Assembly: GCA_045105515.1 (NCBI GenBank)
Contig: JBGCDR010000040.1
Coordinates: forward strand, 25,664-89,663
Direction of reading: 5' to 3'
DNA length: 64,000 nucleotides
Origin: Oligoflexales bacterium
GTDB lineage: Bacteria; Bdellovibrionota_B; Oligoflexia; Oligoflexales; Bog-1112
The notes below the pieces were generated by a model. That model did no database searches. It was not told the DNA's origin and saw only the letters and a list, made by a program, of their open reading frames with translations. Below are positions 18,261 to 57,668 of the stretch, in pieces; positions within the stretch are counted from its first letter, which is position 1, and each line of letters begins with the position of its first letter. The position numbers were made by a program, and so were the translations under genes.

Positions 18261-19094
18261 TTAAGCAATTTTATCTTCCAGCTTGGGTGTGAAAAAATGC
18301 GTGACTTGCTGACTAAGAATTTCTAAAATTTGCTCATGAGTTTTATTTGTAGGCTTAAGCCACTTAATAAGCGCCTCCTCCCTAAGAATTACTGGACAGC
18401 GGTCATGACCAGCTGCTGAAATCTCCGGAGTTGGTTCAGTTGTTATTAATGAAAAACCTTTAAAAGGATTATGTTCCCAGATATCGTGATTGAAGATAAC
18501 CGGCACAAAAAGCCCCAATGCTGATTGAGGGTTAAATTCGATCACAATACTTCGCTCGCTTGGTTCCTTGAGTTCCGTCTTTGTCGGCGAATAGCTTTTA
18601 CCTTGCGCTAGTATTTTCTTTTTTCGTTGCAAAGTAAGTGCTGCAAAATGATTTTTAATTGCGGTAAGTGTTATCGAACCTGAGCTAAGCAAGTTTCTGA
18701 CCTGCACATTCTCAAAAAAACCATCAAGAATAATGAACCCATGCCCCTTTTGATAAGCATCTGACCAAGCTGTAGAGCGCAAATTATCCAATCTTGAATT
18801 GTAATTGCAACGCTTTTCTTGACGGTTTCCTCGAGTAATGTTTCTGAGCTTGGGTTCGTAATATTTCCCATAACGCATCGGCTCACATACTATAGTTTCA
18901 CCTTTTTGATAATAAGCTGGAACATAATATTTATCACCGCAAAAAAAACGCTCTCCGCTCTTAGCCACCTTATAGTCTTTTGGATATTCGGTACTTTTTC
19001 CGAAAAGGTTTTCCCAGACTTCCTTTGCTTGTTCGACCCCAAGACGCAATTCAACTTCTTTTATATTTTTTCGCGTTAATGCTGAAAAGCACAA
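18261..19094 (-). CDS. SOS response-associated peptidase (SRAP/HMCES family, abasic-site protection)
   Basis: Begins Met-Cys (catalytic Cys2). Motifs YNSRLDNL, GFFE, LITTEP and GHDRCPVIL. Confidence 0.85.
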   Translation of the reverse strand: MCFSALTRKNIKEVELRLGVEQAKEVWENLFGKSTEYPKDYKVAKSGERFFCGDKYYVPAYYQKGETIVCEPMRYGKYYEPKLRNITRGNRQEKRCNYNSRLDNLRSTAWSDAYQKGHGFIILDGFFENVQVRNLLSSGSITLTAIKNHFAALTLQRKKKILAQGKSYSPTKTELKEPSERSIVIEFNPQSALGLFVPVIFNHDIWEHNPFKGFSLITTEPTPEISAAGHDRCPVILREEALIKWLKPTNKTHEQILEILSQQVTHFFTPKLEDKIA

Positions 19095-19409: not shown

Positions 19410-20936
19410 CTATCCAAGCTTTTGACTGAGCCCTTTGACTGCAAAGCACCATACCGCAAGCATAACTATAATCGTCATTGCCATATAAGGAGTTGCCGCA
19501 CTGATAGAGTTGCAAGTAAGAAGAAGCATCTGCACCAGAAGAGATCCAGCAGATTTACCTATTCTCGAACCAACTCCATCGATTGCCGCTTTACCGTAAC
19601 GTTTTTCTGTGGTTGAAAGAGGGATAAAGGCGATTTCTTTAGAGGTATCAAAGAGGGTATATTTACAGCCTCGAGAAAATATCATCTGCACGGAGCCAAA
19701 AAATAAAGATAAATTTACCGGATTACTCGTTAGGTTTAACAGTATATCGGGAGTCGAGGCTGTTTCTTGGTAGAGAAGAAGCCAAAAAAAACCAGCACAG
19801 GTAATCGAAATAGTCACTGGAGTCAGATAAGCAGCGTATTTCCATCCACATCTACGAAGCAAATTACCTGAGATAAATAAAGAAATAATCACTGAAAGGA
19901 TGCCTGTTAATGTCGTAATATGGCTTTTATAACGAGCCATCCCTGCTGCATCATCCAGATAAAGCATTTTCAACTGATTTTCCCAAAGCACATCTGAGAG
20001 GTTAAAAACCAAATTATAGCTCAATACCAACAAAGCGATATAAAGCAGATGTTTAGAGCCTCGTAAGCAATCCAGGCACTCTGACAAGGTAAGCTTAACC
20101 TTCTCATTTTTTTTAATCTTTTGGTCGGGAGTGTAAACGACCCCTTGCCAGTGCATATAGTAAAAAAGCAGCATAACCAAAAAGCCACATATTACAGCAG
20201 TTCCAAGATAAAACATCAAAGATTGTTCCCAAGCAGAGGAGCCAAAAGGTAGATCAGGATTGAAATTATGTCCTGCATAATAAGCTGAAGTTAGACCGGC
20301 AAAAATTGCTGCTGAGTTGGCACCGAGTAAAAATAAAGGGTAGAACCTTCCTGCCTGTTCTATACTTGTAATTTCGTTAGCAAAACCCCAAATAAGCATA
20401 GAAAGTAAAATTGTTCCCCATAATTCTGTAATTACATAAAAAACTGATAATGGCCAATGCCCGATCATACTCACAAAACCACCCGCTCCTTCGGGAAGAA
20501 TTTGCGTCAAAAACAGAGACAAGGAATCCAATTCAAGGCTAGACCGATTCGGATATATGAAGAAGATAAATACTAAATAGAATGCTATGAAAAAGCTCAG
20601 CATGAAGTAAAAAATTTTTTCTCTGTCAAAACGATGTGAAAGTCGCATCGCTAAGCCTGTAATCAAAAAAGCTCCGGGTATGACTGCCCAGACTTTTAAG
20701 AATGGAATGATCTCTGCTCCCACCTTGCTTTCTGCCACCACAATGGAAGATTTAATAATTCTCAGCATATCGTAAACATATGCTAGAAGAAAAAATATTA
20801 AGAAAGTTGGAACGAATTTATTCAGTTCATCCCCATGAACAGGCCAGACTATCGATTTGATTTTAGTCAATAAACCTTGCGAGTGATTTTCTGGATCTAG
20901 GCTGCGATCATTTACTGAATTTTTTAGAACATCCAT
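19410..20936 (-). CDS. TLC/NTT-family nucleotide transporter (Npt1/Npt2-like)
   Basis: About 12 TM segments. Motifs IPFLKVW, FYVITELWG, WGFANEIT..QAGRFYPLF, KYTLFDTSKEIAFIPL and GKAAIDGVGSRIGKSAGS. Confidence 0.93.
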   Translation of the reverse strand: MDVLKNSVNDRSLDPENHSQGLLTKIKSIVWPVHGDELNKFVPTFLIFFLLAYVYDMLRIIKSSIVVAESKVGAEIIPFLKVWAVIPGAFLITGLAMRLSHRFDREKIFYFMLSFFIAFYLVFIFFIYPNRSSLELDSLSLFLTQILPEGAGGFVSMIGHWPLSVFYVITELWGTILLSMLIWGFANEITSIEQAGRFYPLFLLGANSAAIFAGLTSAYYAGHNFNPDLPFGSSAWEQSLMFYLGTAVICGFLVMLLFYYMHWQGVVYTPDQKIKKNEKVKLTLSECLDCLRGSKHLLYIALLVLSYNLVFNLSDVLWENQLKMLYLDDAAGMARYKSHITTLTGILSVIISLFISGNLLRRCGWKYAAYLTPVTISITCAGFFWLLLYQETASTPDILLNLTSNPVNLSLFFGSVQMIFSRGCKYTLFDTSKEIAFIPLSTTEKRYGKAAIDGVGSRIGKSAGSLLVQMLLLTCNSISAATPYMAMTIIVMLAVWCFAVKGLSQKLG

Positions 20937-21330
20937 AAATTCTCAATAACTCACGTTTACCCAAGGAAACAGATAGGAAACCGCAATAGGACCTGTGTGA
21001 GAGATTCAACTGAAAAAACATCCAGTGTAATCCACACCAAATTATTGTGACCATTAGTGGTTCACGACATTGCAAGGCCTTATAGGGTACTTACATATGT
21101 CATGTAGTCTTTATTCAACCACCTTGCAAGTCTATATTTCGAAAATGCAATAATAACAGAATATTTTCTAAGCTTATTGACCTTTTCTCGAAGGCAGATG
21201 TATCAAAAGTTTTGACACTTGGAAGAGTAAATTTTATCGATTGTAGTACAAGAATTTTATACTTGTAAAGCAACAATAGCAAAGGAGCTGTTTAAGAAAC
21301 TACCCCTCAAGCTCCTTCAATACTAGAATA

Positions 21331-47998: not shown

Positions 47999-49282
47999 AT
48001 GGCCATTTATGGACGGAAACGCTTATCTATTTTTTTTGCCTGCATACTGCTCTCAATGATTTTAAGCAGATTGGTATGGATGCAACTACGCACCTACCAG
48101 CTTGTACCCTCCTTTGGTGCTTTTAGCACATTTTCATACATAAGCAGTGATTTCCGCAAAAATTGTCGTAACAATTCCGAAATTGCTGAGCTTTTCACAC
48201 CGCTTAGACAGGAAGCTCAGTTGATTGCCCCAAGCTTTCACCGTTGGTTCATCCAGCCAAGCTTTATTCTTGTCTCCAAAGAAATCTGTGCTAAACCAGA
48301 GCCAATTCAATTTATCATCCACATGCATTGGATTTGTCTGGCACTTATTGTGCTTCTTGGTATTTTTCTTGCTAGGTTTTTATCTAGTTCCTGGTGTTTG
48401 GCAATATTTGTAGGAGCGACTCTTATGAGCCGAGGGGCACTATTGGCCTTGATAGGTTCTTACTCCGACGCTCTACCCTTAACACTACTTATGACCCTTT
48501 GGTTTACTAGCTGTATCCATTACCTAAGAACCCTATCAAACGTAAGCCTAACCATGGCACTTACAGCGACCATATTAGGCTCAATGCTAACGGGTAGCTT
48601 CATTGGTTTAGGTTTAGCCATCCCTTGCTTCTTGTTTATCTTAAAGCGAAAGCCAGTATATCGACCCATTCAAGCTGCATCTCGAGGATACTTAAGCAAC
48701 AATAGAAATTTCAAAGCCTTTTCTCCCTTAAGAATAAGATTCAGTATGTGGATCAACAGGACTCCAAATTTGCGAAAACAACTCCTATTTTTTTGGCTCA
48801 TTTTAACAGCTGTGCTTATATCCATGCAAGTAAGCTTTAAGGCCTACCAGCTCTTTTATGGTGACAATCTTAAAGGGAATATCCTTGAAGGATTATCAAG
48901 GCCAACTATCAATACATTTTCGAGTTTTTTGAGCTACTGGCTATTTGAAGGCATAAATACCCTCGACCTTCATTCCCTATTCAGTATTGCTATCATTTTT
49001 CTGTGGGGATTCTCATCGCAGCTGGAAAAAACTCATGAATATACAAAAGAAGCTATTTTGCTCTTTATGGTGTGTTTTGGAATCCTCTTCAGTATAACTT
49101 TATTCACTGGTTATCTAGATTTCATTATTTTGGGAGTTGCTAGTTTGAGCTCGCGTGCTTTATCGCTGAGAGTAATGCACCCAACTCCTTTCCTTGTTTG
49201 GCTTGAGCCTATTATACTAACATTAGGTATCATCGGTTTATATCATATGCTAAAAAGAAAAACGGTCAGTCTTGAACGCTAA
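47999..49282 (+). CDS. Polytopic membrane protein (possibly GT-C/ArnT-like)
   Basis: About 10 hydrophobic segments, an N-terminal periplasmic loop, and a SD(A)LP-type loop after a TM segment. Confidence 0.5.
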   Translation: MAIYGRKRLSIFFACILLSMILSRLVWMQLRTYQLVPSFGAFSTFSYISSDFRKNCRNNSEIAELFTPLRQEAQLIAPSFHRWFIQPSFILVSKEICAKPEPIQFIIHMHWICLALIVLLGIFLARFLSSSWCLAIFVGATLMSRGALLALIGSYSDALPLTLLMTLWFTSCIHYLRTLSNVSLTMALTATILGSMLTGSFIGLGLAIPCFLFILKRKPVYRPIQAASRGYLSNNRNFKAFSPLRIRFSMWINRTPNLRKQLLFFWLILTAVLISMQVSFKAYQLFYGDNLKGNILEGLSRPTINTFSSFLSYWLFEGINTLDLHSLFSIAIIFLWGFSSQLEKTHEYTKEAILLFMVCFGILFSITLFTGYLDFIILGVASLSSRALSLRVMHPTPFLVWLEPIILTLGIIGLYHMLKRKTVSLER

Positions 49283-49319
49283 GATTAAAAATACAAATCA
49301 TTCTAGATAAGTACAGCCT

Positions 49320-50189
49320 TTGATAGATAGATTGATTTTGAAGGCTGACATAAATTCTATTGGAAAGGATGCTATGAGAGGATTTCCCTTTGCATTGATT
49401 GGAGCTCTACACCTTCTAACTTTTATAGCCTGCAGCCACCAACCTAAGCGTCCTCCAAAAGATCAAATTGAGCAAACTAAGCTGCTCAATGACAAACAAG
49501 CTGCTACTCCAATTGCTTTAAGCCCAAATAGCTGCATTCCGTTTAAAGACCCTAATTCTTCACTACCTCTATGGCTACAGAATCAAGGCATCGTAGTGAC
49601 TCGGTTTGTAAAAGAATGCACTACTAATGAAGGTAATAGAGGTTATGAGCCAGATAGCCCTTGGGTGGCAATGGGATTCCCTTGTACTGGAGGAGATGGC
49701 AGGATAGAAGTAGGTGGACACTATTTTGCACCAAAAATAATTAGTCTGATTCTTTCAACAGACTGTTCCATGTTTCCATCATCATTAGATAAAGTACGCC
49801 AAGCTGGAGTCAGCGCCCTAGCTCTCAAGAGCAACTCGAAGCTCATGGCATTGAACCCATTTGCTGTGCAGTATTGGGAAATTCCAGGTTACGATGATGC
49901 AGATGTTGGTTTTACCATCGACCTACGCTCCATTGCAGCCAAACAACAATTATGGAAACAGTTCTTAGAAAAGAAACCAATCCAAGTCAAGCTTTTTGGA
50001 CGAGAAAACGCTTGGATCAGAGGTTATCACTTCTTCGATGTTGATGCCGAACTCATTAACACCGGGGTACAAAAATTTCAGATGCGCATCAAGAAAGTAA
50101 CTCCACTCGATGGAAAAGGAATTAGGGAGATCCGCGATAGGTGTGAAAGCCTCCAGCCTCGCAGAAACTGCTCGCAAGTCTTTAGATAA
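49320..50189 (+). CDS. Uncharacterised Cys-rich lipoprotein
   Basis: Lipobox FIA-C counted from ATG 49371 (MRGFP), with several paired Cys. Confidence 0.65.
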   Translation: MIDRLILKADINSIGKDAMRGFPFALIGALHLLTFIACSHQPKRPPKDQIEQTKLLNDKQAATPIALSPNSCIPFKDPNSSLPLWLQNQGIVVTRFVKECTTNEGNRGYEPDSPWVAMGFPCTGGDGRIEVGGHYFAPKIISLILSTDCSMFPSSLDKVRQAGVSALALKSNSKLMALNPFAVQYWEIPGYDDADVGFTIDLRSIAAKQQLWKQFLEKKPIQVKLFGRENAWIRGYHFFDVDAELINTGVQKFQMRIKKVTPLDGKGIREIRDRCESLQPRRNCSQVFR

Positions 50190-50208
50190 CGCACATTATG
50201 ATGCATTT

Positions 50209-51816
50209 TTATAGTGTAACTGCAGTAGCAGACAACACATGCTTTACAGACATGAGTTTTTCCATCATAGAGCCATTAACCTCACTATCTATTTTTACTA
50301 GCGCAAGAGCTTGACCTCCTTGGTTACTTCGAGACAGTTCAAACGAATCTATGTTAATCTGTTCACGCGCTAATAAGCTCCCCACGTCCCCAATCACTCC
50401 AGGTTTATCTTCATTTCTGATGACAATAAATCGACCACTTGGCTCTACCTCGAAAGGATAGCGATCGATCAATGAAATCCTTATATAACTCTGATCAAAC
50501 ACTATTCCTCCTACACTCAAAGTTTCTCCACTTTTATAGTGCAAAACAAACTTAATCGCAGAGTGATAGCTATCAAAATTTGGATCTTTGGACTCTTCTA
50601 AAGTCAAACCTAGGCTTTCAAAATGAGCCCCAGCATTCACAAAAGAAACATAACTATTCACAGCACAAGAAACGTATCCCTTCATCCAACCAAGCTTTAT
50701 GAGACCTGGATCAACACCTGCGAGGTCTCCACGATATAGAACTTCAATCTTATTTGGATTAGCTTTATTCAGCTGACCAGCTAAACGTCCGAGTTTTTCC
50801 GCTAAAATAGCATAAGGCTTTACCAAAGGATTATCAACGACACCAATTTGAGGTAGATTTACCGGATAATCCACGACCCCACCTTCTAGTGCCTTAAGCA
50901 CTTGGACGTAAACACTATCTCCAATTGCAAATTGAGCCTCTTCCGTAGAAGCTCCTATATGCGGTGAACAAATCACTCGTGGGTGTTGAGCCAATTTTGC
51001 CAATATTTCTGGTTCACTTTCCCATGTATCAATGGCAGCTCCGGCTATATGTCCCGACTCTAGAGCCGCAAATAAAGCTTTTTCAGCAATTACCCCTCCT
51101 CTAGCTGCATTTATGAGAAAAGAACCTGGTTTCATGGCACTAATGACTTCTTGGTTAATGCAAGATTTTGTTTCCCGGTTCAAGGGGACATGAACAGTGA
51201 GAATATCAACAGCGGAAGCCAAAGCTGTCAAAGATGGCAAATTCACTACATCAAAGCGGGCAAATTTCTCTGGGGCAATATAGGGATCATGGCCAAATAC
51301 CTCCATATCAAAACCATGAGCAAATTTTGCAACCCTATGACCCACATTACCAAGGCCAACAATCCCAATTTTTTTGCCCTTCAGTTCATTGCCAATAAAT
51401 GTATGACGGTCCCAACCTCCACCTTTAACCTTGTGGTGAGCTTGCGGAATTTTTCTCAATAAAGCCAACATTATACCTAAGGTTAACTCAGCGGCAGAAT
51501 TGGTATTCTTTCCAGGTGTGTTTAAAACTAGAATTCCCTTTTTTGTGGCGTATTCAATATCAATATTTGCCACTCCTACTGCCGCGCGTGCTATCACCTT
51601 GAGTTCTTTGGCTATATCAATTAGGGCTGCATCTATTTTAGTTTCACTTCGCGTTATTAAGACCTTAGCTGAGGGCACCAGCCTCTCTAGTTCTTCCCGC
51701 GAACAATCCGGTTCATACTGAATCTTTAGATAACTTATTTCTCGGAGTTTTTTAATAGCATATCGATCAATAGCTCCGGTAATTAAAACTACAGCATTTT
51801 CCTCTTCTTTTACCAC
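50209..51816 (-). CDS. serA: D-3-phosphoglycerate dehydrogenase (type I, with ACT domain)
   Basis: Motifs ITRSETK, GVANIDI, NTPGKNT.SAAE, GLGNVG, INAARGG, SPHIGASTEEAQ and C-terminal ACT (NEDKPGVIG). Confidence 0.95.
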   Translation of the reverse strand: MVKEEENAVVLITGAIDRYAIKKLREISYLKIQYEPDCSREELERLVPSAKVLITRSETKIDAALIDIAKELKVIARAAVGVANIDIEYATKKGILVLNTPGKNTNSAAELTLGIMLALLRKIPQAHHKVKGGGWDRHTFIGNELKGKKIGIVGLGNVGHRVAKFAHGFDMEVFGHDPYIAPEKFARFDVVNLPSLTALASAVDILTVHVPLNRETKSCINQEVISAMKPGSFLINAARGGVIAEKALFAALESGHIAGAAIDTWESEPEILAKLAQHPRVICSPHIGASTEEAQFAIGDSVYVQVLKALEGGVVDYPVNLPQIGVVDNPLVKPYAILAEKLGRLAGQLNKANPNKIEVLYRGDLAGVDPGLIKLGWMKGYVSCAVNSYVSFVNAGAHFESLGLTLEESKDPNFDSYHSAIKFVLHYKSGETLSVGGIVFDQSYIRISLIDRYPFEVEPSGRFIVIRNEDKPGVIGDVGSLLAREQINIDSFELSRSNQGGQALALVKIDSEVNGSMMEKLMSVKHVLSATAVTL

Positions 51817-51902
51817 AATATCCCCTTCACATCACAGGTAGAGTTTTCCTATGACCAATGTTTACCCTTTTATCTAAAATGGAACTATAAAATTTTTAGG
51901 AG

Positions 51903-53396
51903 CTATTTATGAACAATCGGTGAAGATGGGATCGAAATGACTGGCAAAGAAAGATGATCAACGGCAGGGAGTAATCTGCGATAAACTATGACTCCCTCCT
52001 TGATAACAGAAAAATAGGTATGATGCCCAGGTTTTGCCCAAAAGCTCCAACGATCACTGCCAACGTATGAAGCTTTTAAACCACCCACATATATCAAAGC
52101 ACGATTTCTTTGAACTCCATATACCTTAATTTGAAAACGGGTCCAGGCTGCACTAGGAGGATTTAGAGGAAGGTGTGCCTTATGAGCCATACAATGGCTT
52201 TTATTATTTACACATGCTTCCTTACCCATAGTATCAATCAAATAGAGGCTCTTTTTTGCAGGAACCTTTGAAAGAATACGAATCGGAAAGCCCGAAAATC
52301 CAGTAAGAGCGACATTGGAGTCAATCTTCCAAATTGGAGTTTTTAAGTCCTGAACAAACCATTTTGAACCATTTTTTATCAATGAATAAGGTTTAGGGGT
52401 ATGTAGCTTAAGGGTCTGTAAGATCTTTTCGGCAGTGATTTGACTACTGCCCGTATAATTTTTTAAAAAATCTATCTTTTTTTCTGAACCCACCCTTCTA
52501 GCAATCACTCTTATTACCCCAGGAAAAGAGGGGCTGCTTTTATAGGCAATATGGCCGACACCCACCTGCCATGGACTATTCTTTCGCAGTTCGAGACCTT
52601 TTTGTGCACTTGTTCTCTTGAGGGCTGGTAAGAGATTTTTCTTGAGTATTTGTGTTTTACCTTCCCTATCATGACCGAAGTCGAAAACTGAAAACCAAAC
52701 ACTATAGTAAGGATCATTTTCTTCCAAATTTTCTATGGAAACTTCTTGGGTTTGCCGAACAGTTTTTACCTGTTCCTTCTCCACAGTATTAGTAAGTATT
52801 TTTTTCCCTCCTTCAGGAATTATACGGTTACGAATTTTTTGAGAGTTTAATTTAACAGTGGCTTTTACTTTTAGAGATTCTGCATCATTATTTTCAATAG
52901 GGACAACAAGGTTCTTTGAGGCTAGTAGCTCATGATCTCTACTACGTTTTTTAAGATTTAAAGTAACAGTTTGACCTTTTCTAAATCTTAAAAATCGCCT
53001 CCATTCCCCATAGGAGTCTGTCACTCCAAGTACTTTATCAAAATAATTCACTCTCGCACCAGCTACCGGATGCCCCTCAGAATCAATAGCTTTCACTTCA
53101 AAAAGTATATTGTGCTTCCTTTTTTCTGGATTTTTAAAGCTACTTAACTTTGGATAAACCAAGAAGGCTGCGCTAAGAATAAGCGAAATAGCTGTTAGGC
53201 CATGCCATAAGCGTTTGTTCCGTTGTCCCTTCCGATATTGCTCCCAAACTTCTTTTAAGGTGGTTTGCGTTCCCCTTTGCGGATGGGGAACCCCTGCTCC
53301 TCCACTGTTCTTTTTTTTCACAATCTTAAGTACACCCATAAAATCCACCTTTTTTTTCCTGCTTGTGCGAACCCTGGATCGCGCGGTAAATCCCAC
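51903..53396 (-). CDS. Membrane-anchored protein with carboxypeptidase-regulatory-like (transthyretin-like) domain
   Basis: TM helix, then VKAIDSEGHPVAGARV...GVTDSYG. Confidence 0.55.
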   Translation of the reverse strand: MGFTARSRVRTSRKKKVDFMGVLKIVKKKNSGGAGVPHPQRGTQTTLKEVWEQYRKGQRNKRLWHGLTAISLILSAAFLVYPKLSSFKNPEKRKHNILFEVKAIDSEGHPVAGARVNYFDKVLGVTDSYGEWRRFLRFRKGQTVTLNLKKRSRDHELLASKNLVVPIENNDAESLKVKATVKLNSQKIRNRIIPEGGKKILTNTVEKEQVKTVRQTQEVSIENLEENDPYYSVWFSVFDFGHDREGKTQILKKNLLPALKRTSAQKGLELRKNSPWQVGVGHIAYKSSPSFPGVIRVIARRVGSEKKIDFLKNYTGSSQITAEKILQTLKLHTPKPYSLIKNGSKWFVQDLKTPIWKIDSNVALTGFSGFPIRILSKVPAKKSLYLIDTMGKEACVNNKSHCMAHKAHLPLNPPSAAWTRFQIKVYGVQRNRALIYVGGLKASYVGSDRWSFWAKPGHHTYFSVIKEGVIVYRRLLPAVDHLSLPVISIPSSPIVHK

Positions 53397-53515
53397 AACA
53401 GTTTGTCCTAGTCAGTGATAAAATAGGGACTTAGCTGTTTTGCATTCACCAAAAGGACCAACAATCGCTCTTAAAGGGCTCATCATCATCATATCTCGAT
53501 GAATTAGAAGGAAAA

Positions 53516-54358
53516 ATGGGCAAGGTATACCTAATTCTTGTTATTATTTTTAGCAGCAATTTTTTGCTCCCTAGCGTCTTTGGGAAAGATCGTATCATCC
53601 TTGCACCAAACCCAGAGCCAGTAGTTCCACCTCCTCCAGACAAAGAGCAGAGTCAGCAGGATTTACAAAGACTCAGGAAGCGAAGAAAAAAACGCAAAGG
53701 AGGGAATATAAGCCGCTATAAATATTTCCAAAATAAGCGTAACCAACAACTCGTTAAAGATTCAGAAAAAAAAGGACCTTATCAGTTTATGACCCAGACA
53801 AGCTTAGTTTTGCCAGCAATTCTGGCAAGAGGCCCAAGAAGCAACTATACGAGCGAACTATCTGCTCATATTTCTACTTTTTTTAGATTATCACCCGACG
53901 AGGAGCCATTCTCTCAGCAATATTGGTGGGGCATACGCATCGCTCCCTTCGCTGGAACGGGAAATTATCAAGAAACAGCGGGTCGCTACAATTTTTTTTA
54001 TTTTGGTCCCATGATTGGTATTGGCAGCTTGAGTAGATCATTAGAAACCGACCAGAAAGAAAACAATGGTATCGTAACGCGATCAAATAAAAATACCCCT
54101 AAAACCAATGGGTGGTTTCTAATGGGGGGCATTGCAGCACATACACGTATCGTCCAAGTTGATCCAACTGATGACATAGCTGATAAAGAAATGAATACAA
54201 TTAAATCAGCAAAACTCGATGGAACTGGACTCTGGGTAGAGTTTACCTATGCTAATATTTACTTTGGAAGTTTGGGTGCTCACTATGTAGCGGGTGTTCA
54301 GCTAGGTGAAGAAAAAGTATTTCTCTGGCTAGGAGTAGGAGCAGGAGGTTGGTACTGA
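53516..54358 (+). CDS. Secreted, putative outer-membrane beta-barrel protein
   Basis: Signal peptide, Pro-rich and Arg/Lys-rich stretch, amphipathic beta strands, and aromatic C-terminus (GGWY). Confidence 0.55.
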   Translation: MGKVYLILVIIFSSNFLLPSVFGKDRIILAPNPEPVVPPPPDKEQSQQDLQRLRKRRKKRKGGNISRYKYFQNKRNQQLVKDSEKKGPYQFMTQTSLVLPAILARGPRSNYTSELSAHISTFFRLSPDEEPFSQQYWWGIRIAPFAGTGNYQETAGRYNFFYFGPMIGIGSLSRSLETDQKENNGIVTRSNKNTPKTNGWFLMGGIAAHTRIVQVDPTDDIADKEMNTIKSAKLDGTGLWVEFTYANIYFGSLGAHYVAGVQLGEEKVFLWLGVGAGGWY

Positions 54359-55017
54359 TAAAGCATACGCAAAAATTATCAAAAGTATTCTCACTTGTTC
54401 TAATCTTCAAGCTTTGCTCATGTACCCTGTTTAAAGGCACAGAAGGTCAAGAAGAAGATATTGAGGCTGAAAGTGACTACGAATATTACGAAGAAGACGG
54501 TATAGAAAATCCTCCTGACCCTTTTGCATTCCCCAAAGAAGCTAACGCTTGGGAGACTCAGGCCCTATTACTAAGTCAAGAATTGCCTGCTTCAGACCAG
54601 ATACAAAACTGCTCTTCTGATATATCGCTTGCAGCAAAAGAAGCTAACAATGACGAAGCCCTTTTGACTGCAAAAAAAACTGTATTAGCAAGTGTCAAAG
54701 AAAATCCCAATCTTTACCATTGGTGTTTTTTCCTTATTGCCCGACAGATGGACAGTCAAATAGAAGCCAGTGGAAAAAGACTAAACGAAAAAGTTGAGTA
54801 CTTTTTGGGAAAAATGAAAGAACTCTGGATTCTAGGAAGAGCCCTGGATGCCCATCGCTCAGGAAACTCATACTTTACCTACTTGCAGCGCCGATATGTT
54901 GACCTATCTCAGAGAGTTTTTGGTCGGTACCTAGAAGTTGTTGGGAGCCCCTTAGATAGACGCCCGACTCGGAAAAAAACTCAAGGAAAGCCAGCAGAAG
55001 AGGCTGAAATTAATTAA
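54349..55017 (+). CDS. Uncharacterised helical lipoprotein
   Basis: Lipobox LCS-C and acidic tether. Overlaps the upstream gene by 10 bp. Confidence 0.6.
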   Translation: MVLIKHTQKLSKVFSLVLIFKLCSCTLFKGTEGQEEDIEAESDYEYYEEDGIENPPDPFAFPKEANAWETQALLLSQELPASDQIQNCSSDISLAAKEANNDEALLTAKKTVLASVKENPNLYHWCFFLIARQMDSQIEASGKRLNEKVEYFLGKMKELWILGRALDAHRSGNSYFTYLQRRYVDLSQRVFGRYLEVVGSPLDRRPTRKKTQGKPAEEAEIN

Positions 55018-55493
55018 ATTGGGGAAGCTTCATTTGGCTGCTTGACACTTGGTTCCAAACTCCCACAGACCTCGCCTCTAATCTTTTGATAATGAGAAAG
55101 CCGATCAAAAGTAAAACTAGGATTAGCAAGCCGCACCACTGGTTCGCCTATGCGGTAGACCTTATATTGAAAACGGTAATCTACACTTTCTTTATTAAAA
55201 GAAAAAACAACAAACCTCCGATAATATTCTTTCAATGTCTCACCCGTAATCAAGCCAAACTGGGTCTCGAAATCACTTTTCTTAAAATCTGTAGAGAAAA
55301 AATCTTCACCTTGCACGGCAATGCTATAACCTCGCCTTAGTAGGTTTCTTCGTGCTTGAATCATAGAGATTGAGCACTTGGTCAACTCCTGAATTTGAGA
55401 ATTTTCTAAAATAAGTTGAGTGCTTTGGCAGGCAAATAAAATCGAAGTTAAAAGACTTAGTAAGCAGATCTTAAGGGTCATATGCATGTTCAA
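55014..55493 (-). CDS. Small uncharacterised lipoprotein
   Basis: Lipobox LFA-C, 159 aa. Confidence 0.6.
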   Translation of the reverse strand: MNMHMTLKICLLSLLTSILFACQSTQLILENSQIQELTKCSISMIQARRNLLRRGYSIAVQGEDFFSTDFKKSDFETQFGLITGETLKEYYRRFVVFSFNKESVDYRFQYKVYRIGEPVVRLANPSFTFDRLSHYQKIRGEVCGSLEPSVKQPNEASPI

Positions 55494-55582
55494 ATTAAAG
55501 GAATCCTTATAGATATCCGATGCCTTCTTTAGATTAACTTTAACACGCAGATGATCCTAGGTGAAAGCACGAGGATAAATTA

Positions 55583-56860
55583 ATGTGTTGCCACCTTAAG
55601 AACTACACAAGAATTGCATTTATTGCTCTCCTCTTGTCACTAGCTACCCCCTACTCATTCCTGTTTGCTCAGGAAGAGGGGGAAATTGAAGATAATTCAG
55701 GAAAAGATGAAAACCCTGAGTTTGCTGTTGATAATGACCTAGAGGAAATAAATGAAGCTGCAGATGAACTTGTGGCATCATCAAAATCCGTGAGACGGTT
55801 TCACGAGGTTCTCGATGAGCTACTAGCAGAATTTGGCTACGATGTCGAAACTGGACAGATCGGAGGGCTAAAAAATCTTGCTATTAGAAAGGTGGATGTA
55901 AGTGATGCCATTCCATCTACATACCGCAAATATTTAGATTTACTGATATCTGAAAGAATCAGAGAGAATTCTGAAATCAAGCTTTTGACCTGCATTCCTT
56001 GTACCAGCAAAACCTCACGGATGATTGAAGGTAAAATTATCATAACTTCACCCGCTACAAACATTGCCGAGTTGCGCACAGCTGCGGAGAGAATCGGTAT
56101 CGACAATTTTATGGACATCGTTTTGGTATATCATTCAACTCACATGGTTCTTGCTATGCAAATATTCAAATCAGATACCAACGAACTAGTTTGGAGCCGG
56201 AGTTACAACAGCGAGACTATTCGCTCTCGTTATCAGAAGCTTGCCATTGATTACAGTCAAGTAGCCCGCTCTCGACCTGGTGAGGATTATCAGCCCGAAT
56301 ACCGATTGTTATTAGGCCTAGGAGGAGCTGGTATTCCGAATGTAGCCGGTGGTCAGCTTGACAGCACCATGCTCGATATAGCTTTTCGAAGCACAGAAAA
56401 GTTTGACAACCGTCGAGCAGAATTTGGGATGCTCTTAAATGCTTATGTAACGTTAGCTAGCATCTTGAATGAATACCCAAAAGTTGATGGTACGGGCTCA
56501 GCCGAAGCAGATAGCGACGATAGCGTTGACCCTAACGCTAGTGATTTCGAAATTGCAGCTCAGCCCCAACCTTTTTCTTTTGCACTTGGGCTATTTGGAA
56601 TATTTTCAAAAAATTTCCTCGGTGTAGTTGAATCATACAACCAAGTCAGACATGGAGCTCATGTTGCTCTAGGTGCAGTATTAACTTCGGGGTATCTTGC
56701 ACCGGCAGGAAAGTTAGGATGGGATGCTTTTTTCGGGAAACGTTTTATGTTTAGCCTTTCAGGGATCTATATTGCCCCTTCGCAGATAACTCTGGATGAA
56801 TCCATAGTTGAAACAACCGGAGGAGTAGGAGGTGAAGGTGTCCTTTCCTTCAATTTTTAG
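55583..56860 (+). CDS. Secreted protein: CsgG/LpoB/TolB_N-like alpha-beta domain plus C-terminal beta-barrel
   Basis: Signal peptide ending FLFA, CxxC (CIPC), ELVWSRSY strand and terminal SFNF beta-signal. Confidence 0.6.
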   Translation: MCCHLKNYTRIAFIALLLSLATPYSFLFAQEEGEIEDNSGKDENPEFAVDNDLEEINEAADELVASSKSVRRFHEVLDELLAEFGYDVETGQIGGLKNLAIRKVDVSDAIPSTYRKYLDLLISERIRENSEIKLLTCIPCTSKTSRMIEGKIIITSPATNIAELRTAAERIGIDNFMDIVLVYHSTHMVLAMQIFKSDTNELVWSRSYNSETIRSRYQKLAIDYSQVARSRPGEDYQPEYRLLLGLGGAGIPNVAGGQLDSTMLDIAFRSTEKFDNRRAEFGMLLNAYVTLASILNEYPKVDGTGSAEADSDDSVDPNASDFEIAAQPQPFSFALGLFGIFSKNFLGVVESYNQVRHGAHVALGAVLTSGYLAPAGKLGWDAFFGKRFMFSLSGIYIAPSQITLDESIVETTGGVGGEGVLSFNF

Positions 56861-57668
56861 AATCTTGATACCCCTTAGCTTCATTGGGTTTAGTGGATGC
56901 AAGTCCAACGACAATGATCCGAGTGTGGAACAGATGTTGCACGGCACCATTTCTTATCCTTTTATCCGTTCCAATCCTCTTGGGCTCAATGGAAAGAAAG
57001 AAAAATTCGTAATTCGATCAATATCTGGCTCTACCGAATATGTAATCGAGATTCCAGACGCGGGAGAAGACTATGATATTGAAATCCCACTTGCCGCGAT
57101 AGGCTCAGGAGACAGCCACAAACCCAAAGGGATATCCTCTCCAGCTGCAACAGACCGAGAAATCACGGCATCTTTACCGGATCTAGCAAGGGAGGCTCCA
57201 GCAAAATCTGCATTTATGGACAAAGCTTTTGGGGTAGGATCCACAGGCGGTCCCAAGCAAGCACCTAGTTATACTTTAGGGATTGCAAAAATTACGAGAC
57301 TCTACCAAAAAAGAAAATTTGAATATGCTTTAATTGAGGTAAACCATTTACTTTCATTTTTTCCTCAAAGTCCAAGACTTCATAAAATGAAAGGAACCAT
57401 TTACGTTAAGTTACACAACTACCAGCTTGCTGAAAAGTCGTGGCTTAGAGCGTTAGAATTCACACCTAATGATCAAATCTTACGAAAAGGTATAGCTAGA
57501 TTACAACAGAAAATTAAGAGAACTTATAGCCCTATATCGGCTTCGAGTGAGCCTAAAGCAGTACGCACAGTTCCGCAAGCTATCAGTAAAAACTATCTAA
57601 AAAATGAAGAAGACTCCGAACTGGAACAAGCTGAAATTGAGGTCAACAATGCTTCACCCGACCAGTAA
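56832..57668 (+). CDS. TPR lipoprotein
   Basis: GTG start with SD AGGAG, lipobox FSG-C, and TPR-like helices (YALIEVNHLLSFFP, LAEKSWLRALEFTP). Confidence 0.7.
   Translation: MKVSFPSIFRILIPLSFIGFSGCKSNDNDPSVEQMLHGTISYPFIRSNPLGLNGKKEKFVIRSISGSTEYVIEIPDAGEDYDIEIPLAAIGSGDSHKPKGISSPAATDREITASLPDLAREAPAKSAFMDKAFGVGSTGGPKQAPSYTLGIAKITRLYQKRKFEYALIEVNHLLSFFPQSPRLHKMKGTIYVKLHNYQLAEKSWLRALEFTPNDQILRKGIARLQQKIKRTYSPISASSEPKAVRTVPQAISKNYLKNEEDSELEQAEIEVNNASPDQ

Follow-up and report, generated by a model that had tools for sequence, protein, structure and literature searches.

Nucleotide transporters (NTTs) of the NTT/TLC family are regarded as the mark of an obligate intracellular lifestyle and a reduced genome. 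We asked what such a transporter does in a 6.29-Mb Oligoflexales genome, in which one lies on the minus strand of the window, the whole 64,000-nucleotide stretch of DNA analyzed here (Table 1). The window is part of contig C40 of a metagenome-assembled genome (MAG) comprising 461 contigs, with 90.9% completeness and 4.8% contamination. The closest named relative, “Oligoflexales bacterium DT_79”, is a genome of the same genus (G012). Taken alone, the window protein is ordinary and adds a new member to an established transporter family. It is the distribution of NTTs across its bacterial family that points to an unrecognized host- or prey-dependent lineage of Oligoflexales. For the window NTT itself we favor the role of an inner-membrane carrier, one of six in the genome, that probably imports nucleoside triphosphates (NTPs) from host cytosol or prey into the bacterial cytoplasm.

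Family membership, charged residues and phylogenetic position

The original prediction described the gene as a full-length, stand-alone NTT lacking a HEAT or cyclic-nucleotide (cNMP)-binding fusion, and this description holds. The Pfam profile PF03219 (TLC) spans residues 23–506 with 475.4 bits (E 2.9e-142; cut-off 21), covering profile positions 8–490 of 491, and the protein ends two residues past the match. The NTP/NDP-exchange-transporter model TIGR00769 of NCBIfam gives 418.5 bits, above its cut-off of 387.2. By exceeding both cut-offs along its full length, the window NTT falls into the NTT/TLC family (TC 2.A.12). PF03219 is its sole domain in the Pfam scan, which returned neither HEAT repeats nor a cNMP-binding domain. 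The protein is thus neither of the NTT-HEAT nor of the NTT-HEAT-cNBD type (cNBD, cyclic nucleotide-binding domain), and the downstream gene, 315 nt away, encodes an SRAP-like protein and not a cNBD. Nor does it resemble the divergent NTT4-like type of ~400–470 amino acids with a weak, partial PF03219 match.

Sequence searches of the PDB matched Chlamydia pneumoniae NTT1 (9j3n, E 3e-98) and Arabidopsis AtNTT1 (9j3j, E 2e-80), and identity to the solved NTT1 structures is 34–36% along the entire length. The AlphaFold2 model of the window NTT (pLDDT 78, pTM 0.81) contains 12 long helices laid out 6+6. Its top Foldseek matches are the ATP-bound NTT1 structures 9j3n (TM-score 0.84/0.87) and 9j3l (0.86/0.91), with generic transporters of the major facilitator superfamily (MFS) next in the ranking at a TM-score of ~0.5. 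Neither the phylogeny nor the profile searches group the protein with divergent NTT-like MFS proteins. On this sequence and model evidence, the window protein is probably a functional, canonical NTT. The GC content of its gene (0.389) and the GC content at third codon positions (GC3, 0.354) both agree with those of adjacent genes, which indicates that the gene is a long-standing resident.

To number residues after AtNTT1, the window NTT was aligned to the structure chain with HMMER; adding 84 to the chain number gives Q39002 numbering and reproduces K155, E245 and E385. Three of the four charged intramembrane residues of AtNTT1 (K155, E245, E385 and K527) are retained. K81 in FLKVW corresponds to K155 (FLKtW), E171 in TELWG to E245 (aELWG), and K461 in RIGKSAG to K527 of the GKSGG motif. 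The fourth position is occupied by D315 in NLSDVLW, a conservative exchange of Glu for Asp relative to E385 (NLvEVTW), and of the four charged residues it is E385 that varies most in other NTTs (PMC10654386). R422, K425, D315 and K461 are invariant in 18 orthologs of 48–94% identity.

The Lys of LKVW, the Glu of TELWG and the SRGCKY motif, all singled out in the original prediction, are present in the alignments. SRGCKY comprises residues 421–426 and aligns to S487-K488-S489-A490-K491-Y492 of AtNTT1, with R422 at K488, Gly at S489 and K425 at K491. The proposed alignment to K155, E245 and K527 therefore finds all three residues kept but puts the Arg of SRGCKY at K488, which rules out this motif as the K527 site. 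The residue at K527 (K446 in PamNTT1) is the lysine that handles the gamma-phosphate or inorganic phosphate (Pi) (PMC2606016; PMC3306366). Its equivalent is invariant in every NTT aligned, including the Npt2 ortholog, and hence discriminates neither the NTT1 type nor the transport mode.

The phylogeny that the original prediction called for was inferred as a 97-row quick tree and as an 84-row IQ-TREE analysis under LG+C20+F+G4 with posterior mean site frequencies, with support given as UFBoot/SH-aLRT; the two agree. Npt2 is represented by its ortholog in Chlamydia crocodili, identified as the second full-length PF03219 gene of a genome that has just two, and labelled PamNTT (PamNTT4 included), SnNTT, Rickettsia Tlc and diatom carriers lie outside the tree set. 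The window NTT lies outside the clade of ATP/ADP exchangers (NTT1) and inside the supergroup that contains the Npt2 ortholog. Its ortholog clade (100/100) consists only of proteins from family genera g1, g7, g9 and g10 and from metagenomes. Together with the orthologs of the paralog on contig C393, a second Oligoflexales clade found in most genera of the family, and with a clade of Legionellaceae/Francisellaceae-like gammaproteobacterial MAGs, it forms a group supported at 100/99. The E385 position is always Asp within this group, hereafter the Asp385 clade, and Asp is invariant across the 44-row subclade. The branching order of the three Asp385 subclades is unresolved (82/78 for window plus gammaproteobacterial sequences). 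A 57-row supergroup (100/99) unites the Asp385 clade with the C. crocodili Npt2 ortholog, chlamydial NTT2/3-like proteins and the clade of the C166 paralog. A separate NTT1 clade (94/87) holds C. pneumoniae NTT1 (9j3n), AtNTT1, the Chlamydia Npt1 ortholog and the NTT1-type paralogs of the family, including that on contig C74. The nearest relatives outside the family are found in Legionellaceae/Francisellaceae-like and chlamydial MAGs.

The window NTT thus shares family and fold with Chlamydia Npt2 and Protochlamydia NTT2, NTT3 and NTT5, and with the C. crocodili Npt2 ortholog also the supergroup and Arg at the K488 position. An Npt2-type role, in which nucleotides are supplied beside a separate ATP/ADP exchanger, fits the protein. 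It differs from this type in its sequence, with an identity of at most 40% and no orthology to a characterized carrier established, and in having Asp where the Npt2 ortholog and its chlamydial relatives keep Glu at E385. The hosts of the genes differ as well: Npt2-type carriers occur in reduced obligate intracellular bacteria, the window NTT in a 6.3-Mb Oligoflexales genome with near-intact nucleotide synthesis. With NTT1-type carriers (9j3n and 9j3o from C. pneumoniae; 9j3j, 9j3l and 9j3m of AtNTT1) it has in common the MFS fold of 12 transmembrane (TM) helices and K155, E245 and K527, but it belongs to another clade, replaces K488 by Arg, S489 by Gly and E385 by Asp, and does not carry SKSxKY. 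The NTTs of Legionellaceae-, Francisellaceae- and Berkiella-like gammaproteobacterial MAGs are 42–47% identical to it, share Asp385 and Arg488 and fall into one clade with it (100/99), although they come from another phylum. Halobacteriovorax marinus, a bacterium of a predatory lineage, also has a PF03219 protein, yet that protein clusters on a divergent branch together with Simkania NTT4 and diatom NTT5/6 (Major et al. 2017, PMC5381601), whereas the window NTT is of the canonical parasite/plastid type.

Distribution in Oligoflexales and nucleotide synthesis

The source genome encodes six full-length PF03219 genes (Table 1) and two divergent proteins of ~400 amino acids. Each of the six has an ortholog of 91–98% identity in G012, a MAG independent of ours, and they are therefore not contamination or a binning artifact. 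These orthologs and the neighbor-like GC and GC3 values also exclude recent transfer as a source of the gene. The two divergent proteins, L007 and L008, resemble weak matches seen in a Simkania genome (L139) and throughout the other families of the order, and probably represent the Simkania-NTT4-like branch.

Full-length NTTs are present in 16 of 16 genomes (11 genera) of the window’s Oligoflexales family, at 2–8 per genome. None was found in 79 genomes from the other 15 families of the order, which gave only weak, partial matches in proteins of ~430 amino acids. Within the phylum set of 131 genomes, a single one of the 115 outside the family carries a full-length NTT, so that within Bdellovibrionota the NTT set is universal in one family and all but missing elsewhere. 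The sole carrier outside the family, a 1.8-Mb genome from another order of the same class, may reflect a second, independent acquisition. The family genomes derive from marine, sludge and groundwater samples and mostly measure 1.8–3.5 Mb; those of the window’s genus measure 4.6–6.3 Mb and belong to motile bacteria. In the literature searched, no paper connects Oligoflexia or Bdellovibrionota with NTTs, save the Halobacteriovorax report (PMC5381601).

Completeness of nucleotide synthesis, a check suggested in the original prediction, was assessed by tblastn of the source genome with E. coli K-12 proteins, complemented by profile searches. The purine genes purF, purD, purN, a split purL, purM, purK, purE, purC, purB, purH, purA, guaA and guaB were found, as were the pyrimidine genes pyrB, pyrD, pyrE and pyrG, to which the profile searches add a type-2 pyrF and pyrC. 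The tblastn search also recovered ndk, gmk, nrdAB and upp. The source MAG yielded no carAB. However, carB is intact in the same-genus genome and the MAG is 91% complete, so we read the absence as an assembly gap and do not accept pyrimidine auxotrophy on this ground. By gene content, the purine pathway appears to be complete and the pyrimidine pathway close to complete, and nucleotide uptake would thus be supplementary in the source genome and not obligatory.

Across the family the picture is patchier: purH is present in 10 of 16 genomes, pyrF in 12 and a good carB in ~7, and one genome of 93% completeness (G017) has none of the three. In another (G005), the carB match is interrupted by two in-frame stops. 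The small-genome members look like cases of ongoing erosion of nucleotide synthesis, and in some relatives import may by now be necessary.

Substrate, coupling and lifestyle

The original prediction stated that ATP/ADP exchangers have Lys, and proton-driven importers such as Npt2 have Arg, at the position of the SRGCKY arginine. This contrast fits the references compared, with SKSxKY in C. pneumoniae NTT1, its C. crocodili ortholog and AtNTT1, and SRAAKF in the C. crocodili Npt2 ortholog. Within the sequences used for the trees, NTT1-type and basal clades are characterized by Lys at K488 and the Npt2-containing supergroup, with one exception, by Arg. The contrast does not amount to a clean rule: R, K or M occupies this position in non-NTT1 paralogs, carrying no NTT2–5 labels, of a Protochlamydia MAG and of a related genome from Parachlamydiaceae. 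Moreover, NTT transport properties and mode cannot be predicted from sequence. In P. amoebophila, the carriers outside NTT1 include antiporters (NTT2 and NTT4) and symporters (NTT3 and NTT5), and diatom NTT1 is a symporter although its sequence is NTT1-like (PMC6995639). Arg versus Lys is therefore not validated as a predictor of symport versus exchange, and proton-driven net uptake cannot be deduced from the Arg, its residue being K488 and not K527. Base specificity and coupling (proton symport or counter-exchange) cannot be told from sequence. As an additional observation, NTT genes of the Arg488 supergroup often come as neighboring pairs in genomes of gammaproteobacteria and Parachlamydiaceae, with a spacing of a few hundred bases up to ~4 kb. 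Where the pair is from Parachlamydiaceae, the K488 position is Arg in one member and Lys in the other.

We consider it probable that the window NTT supplies nucleotides. NTPs would enter the bacterial cytoplasm from the cytosol of a eukaryotic host or from prey contents, and would top up precursor pools for RNA and DNA, while the NTT1-type paralog on contig C74 would separately perform ATP/ADP+Pi energy exchange. The characterized non-NTT1 carriers Npt2, PamNTT2, PamNTT3 and PamNTT5 supply nucleotides (PMC6995639). The bacterium would have a phase of life in which it is attached to, or resides within, a cell of its host or prey. Such a stage fits, because NTTs occur in every genome of the family compared with one of 115 in the remaining phylum. 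The parts that we infer are the transport direction, NTPs as the substrate and the link to host or prey, whereas family membership, fold, retention of charged residues, exclusion from the NTT1 clade and family-wide distribution are observed. Of the original prediction, an intracellular, epibiotic or predatory stage agrees with the distribution; the proton-driven mode is not supported by the Arg.

Several points weigh against this assignment. Synthesis is near intact in the source genome, which shows no auxotrophy requiring import, and the Chlamydia Npt2 ortholog, the nearest reference of a characterized type, is only ~40% identical or less. We know of no member of the Asp385 clade that has been assayed for transport, and, to our knowledge, the source bacterium has no known host. 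NTTs are reversible carriers, and the NTT of Candidatus Azoamicus has reportedly been proposed as an ATP exporter.

We weighed four other functions. That the window NTT is a second ATP/ADP(+Pi) exchanger for energy parasitism, with the same function as NTT1, appears unlikely. Its position outside the NTT1 clade, in the Npt2-containing supergroup (100/99), and its Arg at K488 and Asp at E385 argue against this function, as does the canonical NTT1-type paralog already in the genome (677 bits, SKSAKY, Glu at E385); these outweigh the conserved equivalents of K527 (gamma-phosphate/Pi) and K155, the acceptance of ATP by most characterized NTTs (PMC4256464) and top PDB matches that are ATP/ADP translocators, though the solved structures are of the NTT1 type only. 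Slightly less plausible again is a carrier of an NAD+-like nucleotide cofactor or of deoxynucleotides in place of ribonucleoside triphosphates. Precedents exist in PamNTT4, which swaps NAD+ for ADP, and in diatom NTT2 and NTT5, which carry deoxynucleoside triphosphates (PMC6995639), and six paralogs allow specialization, but we found no positive sign of such a substrate.

Export of nucleotides, whether into the periplasm to serve ATP-dependent processes outside the cytoplasm or toward a host by a mutualist, would draw on the reversibility of NTTs; we regard it as very improbable for a monocistronic gene whose neighbors include no exported kinase or phosphatase and vary between orthologs, and whose product sits on the canonical parasite/plastid branch and on neither the NTT-HEAT nor the divergent branch. 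The hardest to sustain is a non-transporting or repurposed NTT-like protein. Although heterologous assays of Simkania NTT4 detected no transport of nucleotides (PMC5381601), the source genome has separate, probable representatives of that type in the divergent ~400-amino-acid proteins L007 and L008, whereas the window NTT is full length, scores 475 bits, keeps its charged residues and has R422, K425, D315 and K461 invariant in 18 orthologs.

A broader scenario is conceivable, but we hold it only tentatively. The family (16 genomes, 11 genera) might be an unrecognized radiation, within Bdellovibrionota, of nucleotide and energy parasites or endobiotic predators that has built up its NTT toolkit of several paralogs through exchange with Chlamydiae and with Legionellales/Francisellaceae-like bacteria. 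If so, the hosts of this radiation would probably be protists or microalgae, shared with these bacteria. The window’s genus, with genomes of 4.6–6.3 Mb, six NTTs, motility and full nucleotide synthesis, would represent a stage before genome reduction, and later stages would be seen in the smaller relatives of 1.8–3 Mb, in which purH, pyrF and carB are being lost. Carriers with Asp385 and Arg488 would then constitute a functionally distinct NTT subtype, as yet unassayed.

This matters because a six-gene canonical NTT set is found here in a motile bacterium of 4.6–6.3 Mb with intact biosynthesis. The genomes form a graded series that shrinks from 6.3 to 1.8 Mb and loses nucleotide synthesis patchily; from it the succession of steps toward host dependence becomes readable, with transporters preceding biosynthetic loss. 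The Asp385/Arg488 subtype, shared with Legionellales-like bacteria, is a target for studying the determinants of substrate choice and coupling mode in NTTs. An intracellular predatory lifestyle does exist within Oligoflexales, as follows from the description of FD111, an intracellular algal predator assigned to this order (PMC12865303). Lineages like FD111 may matter in algal culture crashes. We found no link between FD111 and the window’s family, and no FD111 record is among the named relatives.

Gene context and leader

The NTT gene is monocistronic, with 394 nt of intergenic sequence upstream and 315 nt downstream. Its neighbors encode an SRAP-like protein, an aldo-keto reductase and an SthA-like flavoprotein. 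The genus keeps this arrangement and two metagenome orthologs keep part of it; elsewhere the neighbors differ. No operon or functional coupling with the neighbors was found, and nothing ties these genes to transport. Elsewhere in the window, positions 43270–57668 hold a run of open reading frames (ORFs) of 220–670 amino acids that have no Pfam match at E 1e-5, broken only by a SerA-like gene.

Table 1. Coordinates of features in the window and of related loci elsewhere
Feature	Location	Strand	Details
NTT/TLC nucleotide transporter coding sequence	19410..20936	minus	ATG start; 508 aa; 12 predicted TM helices
SRAP/YedK-like downstream neighbor	18261-19094	minus	TTG start; weak Pfam match (46 bits); next to NTT in same-genus genome too
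Intergenic region upstream of NTT	20937..21330	minus	394 nt
Putative NTT promoter	21101..21129	minus	-35 TTGCAA 21129-21124; 17-nt spacer; -10-like TACATG 21106-21101
Conserved short hairpin	21072..21094	minus	GUAAG 21094-21090 pairs with CUUGC 21076-21072; near predicted transcript 5' end
ORFs without Pfam match	43270-44412, 44581-46602, 47999-49282, 49320-50189, 51903-53396		
ORFs without Pfam match, rest of run	53516-54358, 54349-55017, 55583-56860, 56832-57668		
NTT paralog C74	contig C74		Lys at K488, Glu at E385; 677 bits; canonical SKSAKY; NTT1-type
NTT paralog C181	contig C181		Lys at K488, Glu at E385
NTT paralog C190	contig C190		Lys at K488, Glu at E385
NTT paralog C166	contig C166		Arg at K488, Glu at E385
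NTT paralog C40 (window)	contig C40		Arg at K488, Asp at E385
NTT paralog C393	contig C393		Arg at K488, Asp at E385
Divergent NTT-like L007	C286:54421-54600		PF03219 20-33 bits (range for L007 and L008); membrane protein of ~400 aa
Divergent NTT-like L008	C410:4677-5570		PF03219 20-33 bits (range for L007 and L008); membrane protein of ~400 aa
Full-length NTT outside the family	G132:C3:14394-15857		
Neighboring NTT pair L143/L144	JABDFC010000024.1		
Neighboring NTT pair L156/L157	CAMCTX010000009.1		
Neighboring NTT pairs L250/L252 and L251/L253			

The proximal ~330 nt of the leader are 84–90% identical to the same-genus genome (83.7% over 331 nt by blastn), and the distal 70 nt of the intergenic region are not conserved in it. 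A block of ~60 nt, cTTGCA-N17-(A)GACTAAAT followed by GTAAG...CTT(A/G)C, is common to orthologs of other genera (L260, L263 and L256), where it is located 133–229 nt ahead of the start codons. Its -10-like element reads TACATG or TAAATG across the orthogroup. The conserved block implies a putative promoter and a 5' untranslated region of ~160 nt, and we infer that it combines this promoter with a small 5' hairpin. In five ortholog leaders, the hairpin stem is kept through one-sided changes only (A-U to G-U), with zero compensatory pairs; the folding z-score of the leader (20937-21235) is -2.85.

No Rfam family matched the 394-nt leader at gathering or E-value thresholds, which gives no support for a riboswitch. 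A regulatory element common to all six paralogs was likewise not found: the promoter-like block is unique to the window orthogroup and absent from the other five. The -35 element lies within the palindrome CTTGCAAG, most of which (CCTTGCAA, with CTTGCAA in common) is repeated ~50 nt downstream. This repeated palindrome could be the site of a regulator.

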